Shown one piece after another: positions 14,705 to 33,361 of a DNA stretch of 41,263 bases. The DNA is taken from the NCBI GenBank assembly GCA_016649525.1, contig JAENXM010000001.1:1-41263 (forward strand), written 5' to 3'. This stretch comes from Actinomycetota bacterium. GTDB taxonomy: Bacteria; Actinomycetota; Geothermincolia; Fen-727; Anoxymicrobiaceae. The number at the start of each line of letters is the position of its first letter. Position 1 is the first letter of the stretch. The position numbers and the translations under genes were made by a program. Under the pieces are notes generated by a model, which did not search any database, was not told the origin of the DNA, and saw only the letters and a program-made list of their open reading frames with translations.

Positions 14705-14916
14705 GGGATAAGGTCCCGGTCTGTGGTTGAAAGTCGATGCCAGTCGCAGGCGAAACGACCCACGTAAGGCAACAATTGGTTGCTGAGCATGGTGCGACTT
14801 AGGGGTAAGCCCTGCCTCCTTTAAAGGAGAGAAGGGGGAGTGGGCAGGCGCTTCAGTCATGCTTGCAAACCCTCAGCAGGCGAGTGTGGGGTCAAAGACC
14901 AGGTCAGCGGGACCCT
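14705..14916 (+). ncRNA. candidate structured ncRNA (raiA-motif-like; family not verified)
   Basis: It lies in a 423-nt gap with no credible ORF. Nested helices: 14712-14718/14908-14914, 14723-14726/14760-14763, 14781-14787/14872-14878, 14788-14792/14857-14861, 14811-14816/14843-14848 and 14817-14820/14825-14828. It sits between comFC and hpf. Confidence 0.4.
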
Positions 14917-27230: not shown

Positions 27231-27574
27231 GGGGGCGATACGGCTTCGACAGGAGTGATGGAGGCGAGGGTGCGGGCCGAGTTCCAACACCTCGTAAAAC
27301 TGTTGGGAACAAACCAAACGCCGATTCTGAATTGGCTCTGGCCGCTTAAGGTGGCCACGTCTCCCGGGGAGGCCTGCGACCCCGGGTAAGGCGACGTTAG
27401 CAGGATAACCTCCGCGTCGGTGTCCCAACGTCGCGGGGGGAAGCTTCAGCGGGACTGGCGCCGGCAGGGCCGCCTGCGGGCCGGGCCGGCGTGAGAAACA
27501 ACCGCAGGATATGCCCGTAGAGTCCTTCGTCAAAGCTCTCTTGGACGCGGGTTCGACTCCCGCCGCCTCCACCA
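27231..27574 (+). ncRNA. ssrA: transfer-messenger RNA (one-piece)
   Basis: The 5' GGGGGCGAUACGGCUUCGACAGG pairs with the 3' CGCCUCC-ACCA and includes the G3-U wobble. The T-arm is GCGGGUUCGACUCCCGC (27547-27563). The tag ORF ends ...ADSELALAA with TAA at 27347-27349; the resume codon is either GGG 27305 (GNKPNADSELALAA) or GCC 27320. Confidence 0.95.
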
Positions 27575-27620
27575 ACCAATCATGGCCCCATGCGGGAGTC
27601 GAACCCGCGTGGGGGGTGCC

Positions 27621-27647
27621 GGGGGGCTTGCCCCCCGAATAATTTCT
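27621..27647 (+). terminator. hairpin terminator candidate after the tmRNA
   Basis: GGGGGG-CTTG-CCCCCC (27621-27636), followed by GAATAATTTCT. Confidence 0.45.
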
Positions 27648-27739
27648 ATGATGGGGTGGTACAGCAAGACTGCGTGAGCGGGCTTGCGTCCTAGGAGGGG
27701 CGAGAGCCCCTCCTGGAAGAGCGGAGGGAACCGGAGCGA

Positions 27740-27850
27740 GACGTGGTGTTCGACTCCCGCCGCCTCCACCAACCAATCATGGTCCCATGCGGGATGCGAA
27801 CCCGAGGGGGGCATAATCTGCGGGGGGAGCATCCCCCCGCAGTGTGTCAT
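27740..27850 (+). repeat. decayed direct copy of the tmRNA 3' module (T-loop, acceptor, CCA, trailer, hairpin)
   Basis: 27748-27782 is identical to 27551-27585 (35/35). Similarity continues to 27811 with 3 substitutions and a 2-nt length difference. The 5' half of the T-stem is mutated (GTGGTG in place of GCGGG). It has its own 10-bp hairpin at 27818-27842. Confidence 0.85.
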
Positions 27851-27973
27851 TCAACTCGGACGGTAGGGGATGGGTGCCGATACCCGAGCACCGGTTGTTC
27901 TGCTTCGACAGAGCCCTCGATGTCATGAAGAGGATGGGTTGACGGATCCGGGTGTTGACCGCCGGGACACAGT

Positions 27974-29578
27974 CTATTCTTCACCGCGGTCGTAGATGGT
28001 TTCGCCTCCACAAATGGTCTTTTCAACCCGTATGTTTCTGATCTCCGATGGCGCCACAGAGACGGGATTCCTGATAAGCACGACCAGGTCGGCGCGCTTT
28101 CCCGGCGTGATGCTTCCTTTCACGGAATCCTCGAACTGGGCGTACGCGGCGCCGATTGTGAACATGCGCACCGCCTGCTCCGCGGTGACGCACTGCTCCG
28201 GTACGAAACCCTCGCGTGTCACGCAGCACTCGATCGAGTGCAGGACGTCGGTGGACTCTATGGGGCCGTCGGATGCGCCGGCGACCCGTGCCCCCGCCTC
28301 CAACAGCGAGCGATAAGGATACGTCCACTTCAGTCGTTCGGTCCCGATTCTCTTTTCCAGCCAGCCCTTCTCGGAGTGTATGAACTGCGGTTGGCTGGAG
28401 ACGACCAGCCCGATGCGCGCGATATCCTCGATTATTTCCGCGTTGAGCTGCGAGGCGTGCTCGAGCCTGTGGCGGTGTTCGGAGATGGGGTATTCACTCA
28501 GCAGGCGGTCGTAGAGCTCGACACAGGTGCGGTTCCCGGCGTCGCCTATCGCGTGGATGGCGACCTGAAAACCGGCGGTATGCGCCAGCACCATCCGCCG
28601 GTATATCTCCTCGACGTCATGCGTCAGGAAGCCGCGGGTGTCGGGCCGGTCGGCGAATGGCTCGTCCATGAACGCGGTGCACGAGCCGAAGGTGCCGTCC
28701 GCGAATATCTTGATGCCTCCGATGCGGTGCCCGGCGCCGACTTCATCGTTGTGCAGCGGCGTCTGACGGGCGGATGTCAACTGCTCGAGGTCGCTCGCGA
28801 TCAAGAGCCCGTAGAGGTTGACCGGTATGTGTTCGAGGAGCATCTGCATTATCGCTAACTCGAACGCACCGTCGGCGCCTGCGGGCCCTTCCTCGCCGGC
28901 CTGCATCACCGCTCCGGCGGACGTTATCCCGTGGGAGGCGAGCCTCGTAAAAGAGGAGCGTGCGCCCTTGATGAAAACCTGCACGTCGGGCAGGGGTACT
29001 CTGTCCTTGATGAGCAGGGATGCCTCCTCGAGGAACGCGCCGGCGGGATATCCGTCCGGCTCGCGTTCTATCACGCCGCCGTCAGGGTCCGGTGTCGACG
29101 CGGTGACAGCGGCCGTCTCTATCGCGGCCGAATTGGCGAAAACGCTGTGCCCGTCGTGTTTCACGATCATCACCGGACGGTCGGAGCAGGCGGCATCGAG
29201 CTCACGCCTGGTTGGGAATCTCGGCGAGTCCAGGTTCTGCTCGTCAAACTGAAGCCCCACCACCCAGGCATCGCCCGTGGCTTTCCTCGCCGCGGCGCCG
29301 ATCATCGCCTGCAGCTCCTCGATGGTGGTCGCGTCTCGTAGATCGACGTTCGTCTCGAAATAGGCGAGCATCAGGGGGTGAAGGTGAGTGTCTATAAAGC
29401 CTGGCAGCAGGGCGCGGCCGTTCAGGTCAACCTGCTCACAGTCCCGCCCCAGCGCTGACTCGCATTCGTCCTTGGAACCTACCGCGATTATTTTGTCGTC
29501 TCTCACCGCCACGGCTTCGGCTCGGGGCCGCGAATCGTCCACCGTATATATGTCCCCGTTGAAGTAGAACTGCTCCAT
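27974..29578 (-). CDS. amidohydrolase family 3 protein (YtcJ-like metal-dependent hydrolase)
   Basis: LLPGFIDTHLHP metal-binding motif, AIHAIGD and ASDGP; 534 aa. Confidence 0.8.
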   Translation of the reverse strand: MEQFYFNGDIYTVDDSRPRAEAVAVRDDKIIAVGSKDECESALGRDCEQVDLNGRALLPGFIDTHLHPLMLAYFETNVDLRDATTIEELQAMIGAAARKATGDAWVVGLQFDEQNLDSPRFPTRRELDAACSDRPVMIVKHDGHSVFANSAAIETAAVTASTPDPDGGVIEREPDGYPAGAFLEEASLLIKDRVPLPDVQVFIKGARSSFTRLASHGITSAGAVMQAGEEGPAGADGAFELAIMQMLLEHIPVNLYGLLIASDLEQLTSARQTPLHNDEVGAGHRIGGIKIFADGTFGSCTAFMDEPFADRPDTRGFLTHDVEEIYRRMVLAHTAGFQVAIHAIGDAGNRTCVELYDRLLSEYPISEHRHRLEHASQLNAEIIEDIARIGLVVSSQPQFIHSEKGWLEKRIGTERLKWTYPYRSLLEAGARVAGASDGPIESTDVLHSIECCVTREGFVPEQCVTAEQAVRMFTIGAAYAQFEDSVKGSITPGKRADLVVLIRNPVSVAPSEIRNIRVEKTICGGETIYDRGEE

Positions 29579-29587
29579 CTTTATATG

Positions 29588-30700
29588 TCAACCTTCCGTT
29601 ATCACGACCGTCGGCCCGGTCGCGTATTTCTCCAGCGCCTCTTCGTCGAGCTCCACACCCCAGCCCGGGCCTTCCGGTAGGGTGGCTGTGCCGTGCGAGT
29701 AATCGATCGGCTCGGTGATCAGGTCGTCCTCAAGCATGACGTGTCCGAAGAGCTCTGTCTCGTACGGGAATGAGTCGTGCCTCGCGGCCACGATGTTCAG
29801 CTGCGCCGCGGAGGCTATGCCGAGCGTCTGGCTGTGGAGGACCGTGCCGAGTCCCCGTTCTTCTGCGAAGTCGATCGCCCTCAGGGCCTTGGTGATACCG
29901 CCGGGGCGTTCGGAGTTTATGCCGACCACCCCGATGGAACCGAGCTCGACGAGTGTCATGATGTCGTGCAGGGAGAAGCATCCCTCGTGTGCCATCAGGG
30001 GGACTTCGACCTGCTTCTGGACCTTCGCCATCGACACGAAGTCGGTCGCTTCGACCGGCTGTTCGGCAAAGTCTATACCGTACGGTTCTATTGCTTTTAT
30101 CGCGCGAACGGCCTCCTCCGGCGAATATGCCTGGTTATAGTCGACCCTGAGTCGCACCTCGTCGCCGAGCGCGTCTCGCGTTTTCTTGACGATAGTTACA
30201 TCCTCCTCGATGCCCCTGCCGAGCTTCAGTCGGAACGTCCTCCAGCCGTCCTCGTAGAAGAACTCGATGAGCCATACCATTGCGTCTGCTTCCATCAGGG
30301 GTATGAGCGCGGCCAGTTGGAGCTGTTTGACCTGGCGCCCTCCCATGAAATCGTATGCGGGGCGACCGGACGCTCTGCCCATCAGGTCATAACAGGCTAT
30401 GTCGAGGAGCCCCTTCGCGACCTCGTTGCGGGTGAGGTTGATGTCCATTCGGCGGTTGATGCGTTCGATATCGAAGGGATTTTCTCCAATGACATACCGG
30501 TAGAGGCAGTCCCTGATTATAGAGATGATCTGCTCCGGCGACGCACCCGTTTCCGGAAGCCACAGCATCGCTTCACCGAGGCCGAACGTGCCGTCTTCCG
30601 CCGTGAGCCTGCAGATCACGAAATCGCCACCGAGCCACGGTTCCTCTGACCCTATCGCCATGCCGAGCCCGCCCTCGCCCGACTGCATCGCCTCCAGCAC
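29588..30700 (-). CDS. enolase-superfamily enzyme (mandelate racemase/muconate lactonising enzyme family; possible racemase/epimerase)
   Basis: FGLGEA capping-domain motif, FRLKLG, VDYNQAY, DFAEQP and the later acidic ligands. It lies 9 nt upstream of the amidohydrolase. The start is uncertain (GTG 30700, ATG 30688 or ATG 30661). Confidence 0.75.
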   Translation of the reverse strand: MLEAMQSGEGGLGMAIGSEEPWLGGDFVICRLTAEDGTFGLGEAMLWLPETGASPEQIISIIRDCLYRYVIGENPFDIERINRRMDINLTRNEVAKGLLDIACYDLMGRASGRPAYDFMGGRQVKQLQLAALIPLMEADAMVWLIEFFYEDGWRTFRLKLGRGIEEDVTIVKKTRDALGDEVRLRVDYNQAYSPEEAVRAIKAIEPYGIDFAEQPVEATDFVSMAKVQKQVEVPLMAHEGCFSLHDIMTLVELGSIGVVGINSERPGGITKALRAIDFAEERGLGTVLHSQTLGIASAAQLNIVAARHDSFPYETELFGHVMLEDDLITEPIDYSHGTATLPEGPGWGVELDEEALEKYATGPTVVITEG

Positions 30701-30839
30701 CAGGGGCCAGAAGGGAACAAAGACCGGCGTAAGTTCTATTTGGGTAATCGCCGGCCCGTCAGTTAGACCGTCTTCCGATGCCTTGTTGATGTTGCTACTC
30801 CTTCCCTCCGCATCCGTATAATACTGTCATCAATGTGAT

Positions 30840-31547
30840 TTACCAGACAAGAGGAAGCAGGCGGCAGCGGGTCTGTCCCGCGTACTCCCGGTAACCGGGC
30901 AGTTCCTCCTGAAGGGTCCGGTCTTCGAGCGCGGTGCGGGCTATCACTATTAAAATCAGCACGGCGCTCGGTGCGAGCCCCCACCACGAGCCAAGGATGA
31001 GTGGGGCAGCGAACAAAGAGAGAGCCAGTGCCGCATACCCGGGGTGTCTTACGAATTTATACGGACCTGATTTGATGACCTCTTGGCCTCTATCCTCCTG
31101 GATTCGGACGGAGCACTCGAAGTACGGGTTGACCGCCATTGCCCAGGTCGCCACGGCAAATGCTGGCAGGATAAGGACCACTCCTAGAACCGTCAGCCAG
31201 AGCGGCATCGTCGACCACTTGTAGCGGGCGGCATCGAGCCCGCACACGACCACGATCGAGAAACCGAGCGGTAGATAGAGAAAGGCGTAGACCTTGTCGA
31301 ACGTCTTTGTCCCTTCCTTTGAGAACCTGCCGCGTGAGTTGAGCATCTCCGGATTCAATCTTACGCAGACCGACGTGTACGTTATCAGGTAGGCCGAAAC
31401 CAGGCCGACATAAATCCAGGCGTTCACCCAGTCGAGCTTTCCCGCTGAAACAAAAAGGACCACGAAACTCGCTATGGAGCTGAAACAGTATGCTGCGAGC
31501 CATCTCAGCCCTTCGCGATTGAGTCTTACTCTGTTCCTGTCAGGCAT
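30840..31547 (-). CDS. membrane methyltransferase, isoprenylcysteine carboxyl methyltransferase / PEMT family
   Basis: Multiple transmembrane segments and the SGPYKFVRHPGYAA motif. I chose the ATG at 31547 because AAAAGAGGAA precedes it; the track start at 31631 would leave only 11 nt to the divergent gene. Confidence 0.7.
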   Translation of the reverse strand: MPDRNRVRLNREGLRWLAAYCFSSIASFVVLFVSAGKLDWVNAWIYVGLVSAYLITYTSVCVRLNPEMLNSRGRFSKEGTKTFDKVYAFLYLPLGFSIVVVCGLDAARYKWSTMPLWLTVLGVVLILPAFAVATWAMAVNPYFECSVRIQEDRGQEVIKSGPYKFVRHPGYAALALSLFAAPLILGSWWGLAPSAVLILIVIARTALEDRTLQEELPGYREYAGQTRCRLLPLVW

Positions 31548-31642
31548 TTCCTCTTTTACCCCCGTGAATATGTGAATTTTAACACTGTATTGGGATAACA
31601 TATTGAGCACCTGAGTGGGATCAACGTTCATGTGGAGAAAGA

Positions 31643-32521
31643 ATGAGCGTTCTATATGGCGGGATCGAAGCCGGTGGCACGAAGTTTGTCTGCGCGGTGG
31701 GCACCGGTCCCGATGACCTGCATGCTGAAGTCAAAATCCCTACGACCACGCCCGGTGAGACGCTCGCGCTCGCGATTGATTTTTTCAAAGAGCAGGCCGA
31801 CCTTGCCGCGGTCGGTATCGCTACGTTCGGCCCTGTAGACCTCGACCCTGGTTCTTCTACCTACGGTTTCATCACAAGAACACCCAAGCCCGACTGGTCG
31901 AATACTGATCTCGCCGGAACGGTCCGCCGCGCACTGGACATTCCGGTAGCGTTTGATACGGACGTGAACGGAGCGGCGCTGGGAGAGAACCGCTGGGGCG
32001 CCGCGAAGGGGCTCGATACCTTCATCTACCTGACGATCGGCACCGGTATCGGTGGGGGAGGGATGTCAGGCGGCAGACTGCTGCACGGGATGATCCACCC
32101 GGAGATGGGTCATATCCGAATCCCGCACGATTGGGAGCGCGACCCGTTTCCAGGTGTCTGTCCGTACCACGGGGATTGCCTGGAGGGGCTCGCAACGGGC
32201 CCCGCCCTGGAGGAACGCTGGGGGCGGCACTCCGAGACGCTGTCGCCGGAACACCAGGCCTGGGATCTGGAGGCTCACTACCTGGCGCTCGCGCTCGTCA
32301 ATTTCATCTTCACGCTCTCCCCTCAGCGCATCGTGATGGGCGGTGGCGTGATGGAACAGCGGCATCTCTTTCCGTTGATAAGGCAGAAGGTCCTGGAGTT
32401 GCTCAACGAGTACGTGCAGGCGCCCGAGGTACTGGACGATATCGAGGGATACATCGTGCCGCCCGGCCTGGGAAACCGCTCGGGAGTGCTTGGCGCGATC
32501 GCGCTGGCCCAGTCACTGTAG
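31643..32521 (+). CDS. ROK-family fructokinase/hexokinase
   Basis: [16 protein letters not shown]-terminus, DVNGAALGE, and the Cys/His zinc cluster [10 protein letters not shown]. Confidence 0.8.
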
Positions 32522-33361
32522 GCCGTATTTCTTCATCATCTTCCGGATGAAACCGGACCCGTCTCTTAAGAGCGCATCTCCGCTCGGCGCGAGCTGCCTC
32601 CAGACCCAGGTGTTCATCGTCTCGGTGATATCGACAAAGCTCTCAAGGGCCGCATTACCCCGGTAATCCATCTCGCCCAGCGCCTTGAATATGTCGTCCC
32701 AGTCAACAAGGCCCGTGCCGGGCACGCCCCTGTCATTTTCACACAGGTGGTAATGGATGAGGTCCGGCCCGGCCATCTTCGTGGCGTCATAGAAGCTCTT
32801 TTCCTCTATGTTCATGTGGTATGTATCGAGGTGTATCTTCACGTTGTCCTCGCCGATCATATCCTTGAGCTTAAACGCCTGCTCGCAGGTGTTAACCAGG
32901 TACGTCTCGTACCTGTTCACCGGCTCGAGGCCTATGTTGACCCCGAGATCCTTCGCATAGCGGGCGACTTCTCTGAGACATCCGGCGGAATACCTCCAGT
33001 CCTGCTCGCTGGGTCTGTTGCGCGCCTGCTTGACGTGCTGAGAGTAGATGACGCCTGAGAAGCTGTTCGAACCTATATCGCTGGTGGCCTTCACACAGTC
33101 CTTGAGATAATCGACGCCTTTTTTCCGTACATCCTCATCATCGCTGGTTATGTCGGTGTCACCCAGCAAAACCGTAGAGGTCACGGCCCCCAGCCCGGTT
33201 TCTTCCAGACGGCCCCTGATCTCTTCAGCATCGAACACGTCCAGGTCGAGCAGAGGGATCTCGATGAAGTCCATCCCGAAGTCCTTTACTTTATCGATGA
33301 GGCCGAGGGTCTCATTACTCCACCGGGAGCACCAGGCGTAGGCGTGGATTCCTAATTTCAT
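32513..33361 (-). CDS. xylose-isomerase-like TIM-barrel ketose 3-epimerase (D-tagatose / D-psicose 3-epimerase family)
   Basis: [10 protein letters not shown] start, [26 protein letters not shown] and ALESF metal-ligand pattern. Confidence 0.7.

Follow-up and report, generated by a model that had tools for sequence, protein, structure and literature searches.

What has placed a second copy of the end of the ssrA gene directly behind the first in this actinomycetotal contig? Large islands that carry an integrase classically integrate at the ends of tRNA and tmRNA genes, and ssrA is a frequent target among them. The window (the whole stretch of DNA that was analyzed, 41,263 nucleotides) carries an ssrA gene whose 3′ part is repeated a short distance downstream. 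The initial annotation had read this as an att-like insertion signature without an integrase, left by an almost completely deleted island, by a very small nonautonomous integrative element, or by a tandem duplication. Three features define the locus.

27231 to 27574, plus strand: ssrA (tmRNA), called by ARAGORN and matching Rfam RF00023 with 168 bits across the full model.
27551 to 27614, plus strand: DR1, the first direct-repeat copy, from a repeat search and alignment, with the exact core at 27551 to 27585.
27744 to 27811, plus strand: DR2, the second copy of the gene end, from the repeat search and alignment, with the same junction in a close relative.

The tmRNA encodes the tag ADSELALAA, and its T-arm (27547 to 27563), acceptor strand, and CCA (27572 to 27574) are all intact. 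DR1 comprises the T-loop, 3′ T-stem, acceptor strand, CCA, a linker, and an inverted T-arm. DR2 reads, in order, a crippled 5′ T-stem (TGGTG), T-loop, 3′ T-stem, acceptor strand, and CCA, and its exact core is followed by a second linker (linker′), a decayed inverted T-arm′ (27789 to 27804), and a G-run (27806 to 27811). The repeat proved to be as it had been described: 27551 to 27585 recurs at 27748 to 27782 in 35 of 35 positions, a core that includes 11 trailer bases, and the longer similarity spans 64 nt (27551 to 27614 and 27748 to 27811) at 92% identity and a 197-nt spacing. The tetranucleotide GACG stands at both 27544 and 27740, and a G6/C6 hairpin accompanies each copy (27620 to 27637 and 27818 to 27842). 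The second copy is indeed unable to fold as a T-arm because TGGTG replaces the 5′ T-stem half, GCGGG, of the gene. The 173-nt interior between the gene end and its repeat contains no gene or gene fragment. The feature characteristic of the T-loop class is therefore present, since the 3′ part of the gene from the T-loop onward is directly repeated around an insert while the tmRNA is intact, and the proposed att-like signature without an integrase holds.

We consider it probable that positions 27575 to 27747, together with the repeated gene end, form a 197-nt unit belonging to a family of highly structured miniature insertion elements that encode no protein, and that a truncated second unit follows at 27772 to 27842. 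Matches to the family were scored with a covariance model, R1, which extends from hairpin H1 to the terminal motif GAGCGACG. The parts of the unit are as follows.

27575 to 27591, plus strand: linker ACCAATCATGGCCCCAT, delimited from the sequence and by comparison with the close relative.
27592 to 27610, plus strand: inverted T-arm ("address") GCGGGAGTCGAACCCGCGT, a perfect 19-nt complement of 27545 to 27563, and supported by target matching over 25 copies.
27611 to 27616, plus strand: G-run, which lies directly 3′ of the address in nearly all copies.
27620 to 27637, plus strand: hairpin H1 (CGGGGGG-CTTG-CCCCCCG), followed by AATAATTTCT, from a terminator scan and covariation in helix 1.
27638 to 27652, plus strand: AT-rich spacer AATAATTTCTATGAT, with the family consensus AATCTAT, from alignments.
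27653 to 27743, plus strand: element body Y, from covariation and conservation, with an R1 match at 27611 to 27743 (88.8 bits).
27818 to 27842, plus strand: H1′ (CTGCGGGGGGA-GCA-TCCCCCCGCAG), which is the hairpin of X′, a truncated second unit, identified from an inverted repeat and a partial R1 match at 27806 to 27879 (35 bits).

The perfect 19-nt inverted repeat between the tmRNA T-arm and the trailer was absent from the initial description of this direct repeat. We refer to the left part of the unit (27575 to 27652) as X and to the right part (27653 to 27743) as Y; DR2 begins at 27744. Within X, a C-run of the linker (27586 to 27591) is able to pair with GTGGGG at 27609 to 27614, and H1 is the only terminator-like site that the terminator scan found downstream of ssrA. 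Y contains the motif GGGGTGGTACAGC, a variable hairpin Hv (27664 to 27687), and a hairpin H2 with a GAGA loop (27690 to 27716), and its right terminus reads ...GGAGCGAGACG in the window, where the family consensus is GAGCGACG. DR2 is followed by a second X, made of linker′, the decayed inverted T-arm, the G-run, and H1′. No recognizable Y lies 3′ of H1′ (the nhmmer match covers only profile positions 9 to 108), and the locus is thus taken to hold about 1.5 units. Across the family, a unit reads from the CCA of the gene through a linker (often with a C-run), the inverted T-arm of that same gene, the G-run, H1 (G6-loop-C6), and AATCTAT into the middle part, which consists of GGGGGGT(G)ACAGCG, the variable hairpin, H2 (TAGGGGGG-loop-CCCCCCTA), and GGAGCGA; a slot of variable length, the fixed end GAGCGACG, and the repeat of the gene end complete it on the right. 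The edges of the repeat vary among copies, on the left from before the T-arm to the T-loop and on the right from the CCA to about 60 nt beyond it, giving duplications of about 17 nt to more than 60 nt. Such variable edges are unusual for conservative site-specific recombination.

About 90 nt of the sequence between the two copies had been described as unrelated. We found instead that the approximately 170 nt between the repeats form a conserved, covarying body that is present at many tRNA genes. All genomes used in this study, including that of the window (G000; 90% complete), are MAGs, in which repeats of this size break or misjoin assemblies. A search for further copies of the spacer, which the initial annotation had suggested, recovered the same body behind other tRNA genes of G000. 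In 7 of its 41 tRNA and tmRNA genes, a second copy of the gene's own 3′ 20-mer lies 86 to 184 nt downstream, and the common body is found in five of the seven (tmRNA, Ala-CGC, Met, Arg-TCT, and Pro-CGG). In the remaining two, Ser and Ile, the short insert is of a different kind. At least 10 loci of G000 carry the element, whole or partial; two other contigs resemble the second copy, with one match overlapping a tRNA, and further copies lie on contigs C332, C94, and C392, often at contig ends.

The distribution of R1 matches extends well beyond this genome. Within the taxonomic family, 12 of 17 genomes had matches, with up to 13 copies in some of them; within the class, 15 of 51 did, among them members of two sister families in the same order and of one further family, to which G030 with its 21 copies belongs. 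None of the 24 genomes of a further sister family (f6) carries the element. Among 151 genomes sampled from the phylum, 5 had matches, two of these being from distant families, and the copies in both distant families are tRNA linked. Flanks were inspected for 20 copies, 15 of which immediately follow a tRNA or tmRNA gene on the same strand, with at least 12 kinds of gene represented. Copies stand directly 3′ of ssrA in five other genomes (G001, G002, G011, G012, and G017), and genera without the element at ssrA also exist. A scan of 185,579 species for the H2 hairpin returned matches in other phyla that lack the element. In a permissive scan of Rfam 15, the tmRNA alone matched, the next model being the permuted tmRNA on the T-arm region with 29.5 bits against a cutoff of 47, and a limited literature search, which is no proof of absence, returned no description of such elements. 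Collectively, it is well supported that these are hairpin-rich elements of about 130 to 230 nt whose insertion sites are tRNA and tmRNA gene ends and which bring a replacement end with them.

This distribution weighs heavily on the idea that the locus is the remnant of an island or prophage that integrated into ssrA and then lost nearly everything between attL and attR. A duplicated gene end without an integrase, at a gene that islands often target, is what such a history would leave. However, the 170 nt are a conserved covarying unit with homologues at many tRNA genes and in many genomes, the body is 98.9% conserved in the close relative, and the interior holds no gene fragments, which makes a deleted island very improbable. 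The repeat had also been thought to mark the start of a 5.4-kb block at 27974 to 33361. We found no support for it as an att boundary of that block, as the window contains no third copy of the gene end and the same downstream gene adjoins the array in the close relative.

The body folds into a structure that has been maintained by paired substitutions. The covariation test used 46 distinct copies in an alignment fitted to the model, which favors structure, although the margin was large: 95.5% of the cells were paired, both sides had changed in compensation in 18 of the 25 pairs, and 150 double-change cells were observed versus 37 ± 6 in shuffles and 6 to 23 with slid partners. Wobble pairs were 26 G·T versus 5 A·C, and this excess identifies the folding strand as the tRNA-sense strand. 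An antisense tRNA-like gene was also considered and rejected, as ARAGORN found none and the wobbles favor the sense strand. The loops of H2 are almost all of the GNRA type, which suggests RNA; single-stranded DNA, however, can also form stable loops of the d(GCGAAAGC) type and stable G·T pairs.

Each unit carries an inverted segment that resembles the T-arm of the gene beside it. Over 25 copies, this segment matched the T-arm of its own host gene at a mean of 15.2 of 19 positions versus 12.8 of 19 for other tRNAs. The own host ranked first, ties included, in 17 of the 25 copies, and none of 20,000 permutations reached the observed sum, a result whose true significance is lower because related copies are not independent. 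Positions 51 to 61 are complemented in 83 to 100% of the copies; how far the complement reaches into the 5′ T-stem or past it before the G-run begins differs from copy to copy. We asked whether inverted T-arms are a general property of tRNA loci and rejected this, since the strong ones among the tRNA loci of G000 are confined to loci with the element. In G018, the bodies are about 94.6% identical, yet the central 10 nt or so of the inverted segment track the T-loop and stem of each host gene. Where the DR2 loop is altered, the inverted segment agrees with the intact gene and not with DR2. The fixed right end, ...GCGACGGTTCGT, joins the target sequence between T-loop positions 58 and 59. In G001, a gene without an encoded CCA is followed by a DR2 that likewise lacks it. 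The tail must therefore have been copied from DNA or a primary transcript and not from mature tRNA, and, for the same reason, the odd bases at T-loop positions 58 and 59 are no mark of copying from a mature, modified tRNA. A hypervariable slot of 27 to 32 nt in the G018 copies was considered as a guide to the local target and discarded, as it has only chance 7- to 8-mers in common with it.

Comparison of related genomes documents occupied and empty sites. G002 and G011 are congeners; tRNA-Gln is followed by a 193-nt insert in G002 and by none in G011. At tRNA-Leu, G002 has a 207-nt insert, and the native flank that stands directly after the CCA in G011 resumes in G002 exactly after the CCA of DR2, so that the insert is precisely delimited. 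Bursts are apparent from the mean identity of the bodies, which reaches 94.6% in both G018 and G030 and marks their copies as young, while the G000 paralogues average 69%. G030 also contains minimal units of 107 to 126 nt that have no tRNA tail and open with a small hairpin, GGGTTCG-nnnn-CGAACCC. These sit inside the loops of REP-like host palindromes, as in ..TTGACAAAAGGG/unit/TCTGACCCTTTTGTCAA.., of the form GGG/../TCTGACCC (slashes mark the junctions). The top of the stem and the loop of these palindromes are T-arm-like, and some of the units occur in arrays of up to four. Tandem arrays were found behind tRNA genes as well, at Arg in G001 and at Ala in G018. In a tree of the copies, which rests on about 125 nt and carries a weak signal, copies group by genome and not by target, and the ssrA-linked copies are scattered. 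In two G018 copies, the closing tail belongs to another tRNA; rearrangement or misassembly is possible there.

The ssrA locus itself was followed into a close relative, represented by three metagenomic contigs that were found with the 30-mer coding for the tmRNA tag. The relative matches the window at 332 of 344 tmRNA positions (96.5%), at 93% in smpB, and at 88% in the downstream gene (75% at third-codon positions). Its ssrA is followed by two complete units (197 and 232 nt) that differ only by a 35-nt insert in the linker, and then by a further gene end, the third, whose linker and inverted T-arm lead directly into the same downstream gene; no empty ssrA site was found in this relative. The number of units thus varies between close relatives, with two full units and a partial third against about 1.5, and unequal exchange may account for that change. 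The odd junction GACG/TGGTG/TTCGAC is identical in the two, and the insertion is accordingly older than the split of the two lineages. Varying unit numbers (about 1.5 versus about 2.3) and two nearly identical units would also be expected if the locus had arisen purely by local tandem duplication of the ssrA 3′ region, through slippage or unequal exchange. We regard this origin as highly unlikely: the same body lies behind unrelated tRNA genes, each with its own tail and inverted T-arm, and unequal exchange can alter the number of units but cannot make the unit. Among the three origins offered by the initial annotation, the deleted island and the simple tandem duplication fall away, and the very small nonautonomous integrative element stands.

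Conservation between the window and the relative is uneven along the unit. The linker, at 70.6% identity, evolves at a near-neutral rate; the inverted T-arm is 89.5% identical, the G-run with H1 96.3% (26/27), and Y 98.9% (90/91). The conservation of Y has a P value of ~1e-4 even at an average divergence of 12%. With 90 of 91 positions retained amid diverged neighbors, the body must be constrained or homogenized and is not decaying, and set against the 75% identity at third-codon positions, such conservation accords with selection by the host at least as readily as with a selfish element. The initial annotation had held that a conserved two-copy arrangement among relatives would point to a functional trailer and away from an integration scar. 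The arrangement and its spacer are indeed conserved in five other genera and in the close metagenomic relative, yet empty and occupied orthologous tRNA sites exist, and we conclude that the element is both inserted and conserved.

These observations lend some weight to the proposal that the units are a host-selected structured RNA module, a trailer cotranscribed with the tRNA or tmRNA that would act, for instance, in termination, processing, or stability or as a small RNA released when the tRNA 3′ end is processed, with insertion explaining only its past spread. This proposal partly overlaps our preferred explanation, and the two may coexist. It would explain why Y and the G-run with H1 are better conserved than smpB and third-codon positions, with Y exceeding even the tmRNA, why H2 has GNRA loops and the wobbles favor the sense strand by 26 to 5, why every examined copy that adjoins a tRNA or tmRNA gene is downstream and co-oriented, why H1 is the sole terminator-like site after ssrA, and why the ssrA arrangement recurs in six genera. 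It fits less well with the patchy spread of the element (none of the 24 f6 genomes and absence from 5 of 17 genomes of its own family), with the empty sites in congeners, and with bursts of near-identical copies and tandem arrays, some of them inside palindromes that are not tRNA genes. Moreover, Y would not be cotranscribed if H1 terminates transcription, the loops and G·T pairs do not discriminate RNA from single-stranded DNA, and no Rfam family matches. On balance, an RNA module as the main explanation is a possibility that we hold only tentatively.

If the units are insertion elements without proteins, an enzyme encoded elsewhere would presumably move them. The tyrosine recombinases of G000 are XerD and XerC-like only, and the same picture holds in G018 (84% complete), whose copies are young and whose only tyrosine recombinases are two Xer-sized proteins; neither genome showed a phage-type integrase, and such an enzyme was set aside as the mover. 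Integrases of about 380 aa are present in G001, G002, G017, and G030. A cis-mobilizable miniature element, moved in trans by a phage- or ICE-type tyrosine integrase through double-stranded attP × attB recombination with a crossover in the T-loop, would accord with these enzymes, with the direct repeat from T-loop to CCA (the classic att signature of the T-loop class), with the restoration of the gene by an element-borne end, and with tandem accretion. We nevertheless consider it unlikely. In addition to the restriction of G000 and G018 to XerC/XerD-type enzymes, the searches revealed no relative that shares these ends and carries an integrase: matches to the right-end pattern were small elements or at control level, orphan right ends were at background, and viral contigs gave 0 matches to the element. 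Further, one family of bodies is found at no fewer than 15 tRNA species, for which a single integrase/attP pair does not account, and its repeat boundaries are variable.

Other candidates fared no better; no mobilizing enzyme came to light, nor did a circular or free form or an excision joint. A serine recombinase was rejected as the mover, none being found in G001 and G002. A retroelement (retron, group II intron, or SINE-like) was also rejected, given 0 matches to RVT_1 in five burst genomes and a DR2 without CCA in G001. G000 encodes a RAYT (NF047646, 85 bits), and Y1_Tnp was found in 19 of 24 genomes of the element-free f6 but not in G018; a REP/BIME-RAYT partnership was dismissed because the presence of RAYT genes does not follow that of the element and no G6/C6 hairpins flank them. 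The possibility of a larger element delimited by distant tRNA ends was discounted too, as the second ends of tRNA-Pro(ggg) and tRNA-Ser(tga), kilobases away, flank ordinary genes, with no integrase between them and with other types of repeat.

As a working guess, we favor insertion elements that move as a folded single strand and are mobilized in trans. The elements target the T-arm of a tRNA or tmRNA gene or, in a single genome, host hairpins that resemble one. The gene remains intact after insertion because the element is preceded by a complete 3′ end; on the right, a second, unselected copy of the gene end is joined to GAGCGACG within or just before the T-loop. The T-arm, inverted T-arm, and G-run could form a long hairpin that mimics the target T-arm, and movement may proceed through folded single-stranded DNA of the sense strand or an RNA intermediate, with an enzyme not encoded in the element. 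The host XerC/XerD recombinases, the sole tyrosine recombinases in two element-bearing genomes, are candidates and nothing more. The integrated order (target-left, gene tail, inverted T-arm, body, fixed end, and target-right) is that predicted for insertion of a folded single strand, as in CTXφ and XerCD. The wobble bias toward the sense strand and the retention of the GGTTCG/CGAACC hairpin in minimal units fit this model. No known recombinase scheme accounts for the variable repeat edges, the tandem arrays, or a tail and an address specific to each target.

A bolder version of this model is that the inverted T-arm is a working address, through which the folded single strand pairs with or mimics the target hairpin, and that the address and the tail are rewritten at each target by housekeeping enzymes only (XerC/XerD or those of replication and repair). 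We regard this as a long shot; if true, it would describe a mobile element of essential RNA genes that has no protein of its own and retargets itself.

Known systems share some of these properties. The T-loop-class integrative elements of tRNA and tmRNA genes, which Williams is said to have described in 2002 and which reportedly comprise tyrosine-integrase islands and prophages, resemble the present elements in insertion at the T-loop or 3′ end, flanking repeats of the gene end, an intact gene, and tandem accretion. Unlike them, the unit here is about 130 to 230 nt without an integrase or any other gene, one body serves many tRNA species, and there are an inverted target T-arm, variable repeat edges, and sites in hairpins that are not tRNA genes. 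CIMEs (of the Streptococcus ICESt1/ICESt3 type) and bacterial MITEs are similarly nonautonomous, bounded by repeats that resemble recombination sites, and presumably moved in trans. They differ in that no cognate ICE or IS was found for the present family, whose interior is a covarying fold and not a deletion remnant, and which has neither clear terminal inverted repeats nor a short, fixed target duplication, both GGTTCG/CGAACC arms lying at the left end. A folded hairpin of inverted, target-like arms at one end is also found in CTXφ attP(+)/XerCD (IMEX), integron attC/IntI, IS200/IS605, and REP/RAYT systems. The order in CTXφ-type models (target-left, arm, loop, inverted arm, body, arm, and target-right) matches that of the elements, as does the wobble bias toward one strand, and the presence of Xer recombinases alone in two element-bearing genomes adds to the likeness with CTXφ/XerCD. 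On the other hand, the searches turned up neither a dif-like site or core nor an integron integrase, RAYT presence does not follow that of the element, IS200/IS605 insertion is not known to duplicate the target, and none of these folded-strand systems is known to copy its target as the present elements do.

The gene-end signature that is usually associated with large islands is thus produced here by a gene-free unit of about 130 to 230 nt, and by a whole family of such units. The family stands out by its presence at many tRNA species in several lineages, by the direct and the mirror copy of the target in each unit, and by a body that is more conserved than its coding neighbors. If the units are mobile without an enzyme of their own, they raise the question of what moves them and how target-specific sequence is acquired; if they are kept for the host, they would represent an unrecognized class of tRNA/tmRNA trailer RNA. 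In practical terms, the elements break assemblies, with many copies at contig ends, and mimic island scars in annotation. A similar tandem architecture lies downstream of the tRNA-Val gene in a MAG of "Bacillati bacterium ANGP1," which has no R1 match; since this architecture is alike yet missed by R1, a wider superfamily beyond the R1-detected family is likely.

The window carries GACCGCCGGGACACAGTCTATTCTTCA at positions 27957-27983, immediately ahead of the stop codon that ends the downstream gene. In the close relative, whose metagenomic contigs hold two full units and a partial third at ssrA, the equivalent place is taken by the third gene end and linker. The window stretch shows only weak sequence similarity to these in an alignment and is possibly the decayed remains of a third repeat. 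At the ssrA locus of the related genome G006 (L013), a tandem repeat of ~110 nt (TTCCCCCATCGTGGAGAAAAGGTTGTAGGCCAGTTGGAACGATGGGGACCCCGACCAC..) lies downstream of ssrA where the element would otherwise stand, the element being the protein-less structured unit that follows tRNA and tmRNA genes. The window also contains a raiA RNA motif.

Window 14710-14916, + strand: raiA RNA motif (RF03072, 175 bits)

Repeated tRNA gene ends were also found outside the window in its own genome, G000. A 3′ portion of tRNA-Ser(tga) that begins at the anticodon loop and ends with CCA is scattered over at least 12 sites, and an expanded insert, ggggtcaccgcgcgcc..gcgcgtggggcgg, often precedes the T-loop in these dispersed copies. 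No integrase is present between them in G000; ordinary genes occur there instead.

G000 contigs C28, C56, C113, C212, C232, and C365: copies of the tRNA-Ser(tga) 3′ part

A second copy of the tRNA-Pro(ggg) 3′ part is located 3.3 kb downstream of the first (G000 contig C303, 4687-7967), and the two copies enclose a gene for a 749-aa subtilisin-like protease, with no integrase between them. G000 further harbors a second, shorter kind of tRNA-tail insert, at tRNA-Ile (C305), where it measures 86 nt, and at tRNA-Ser (C28). This type is characterized by the motif GGGGTCACCGCGC-hairpin-GCGTGGGGYGGTTCGA and, as in the main element, is bounded by the gene-end repeat. The same motif was identified downstream of ssrA in another genus, where it comes after a plain terminator (G008 and G014; L030 and L029).

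Other genomes provided similar or different repeats. In "Bacillati bacterium ANGP1" (VBAP01000009, L151), tandem units behind tRNA-Val share the architecture of the element, including a segment that resembles an inverted T-arm, a G-run, G/C hairpins, the sequence ..GCGAC, and a repeat of the stretch from T-arm to CCA; these units gave no match to R1, the covariance model of the element. The Gaiellales MAG La5_metabat2.068 encodes a different conserved structured repeat of ~200 nt (..ggttggcagcccgaaaactctccgcagg..ggggggacgggagtcccccc..cggggggcgagagccccccgg) in at least 4 copies (L145, L163, L168, and L213), one of which follows tRNA-Phe.

In the related genome G030, a REP-like palindrome family (..GGTTGACAAAAGGG-TCTGA-CCCTTTTGTCAACC..) constitutes the insertion sites of minimal units, the 107- to 126-nt copies that lack a tRNA tail.

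G030 loci L069, L070, L072, L124-L130, and L136: REP-like palindromes with minimal units

Near-identical element copies in G018 (L073-L075) vary in a hypervariable slot of 27 to 32 nt, which is closed by GCGGG/CCCGC, flanked by GAGCGAGCGGGCGTAGTG and CCCGCGAGCGACG, and unrelated in sequence to the local DNA with which it was compared. The length of this slot ranges from 0 to 170 nt in the element copies of other genomes.
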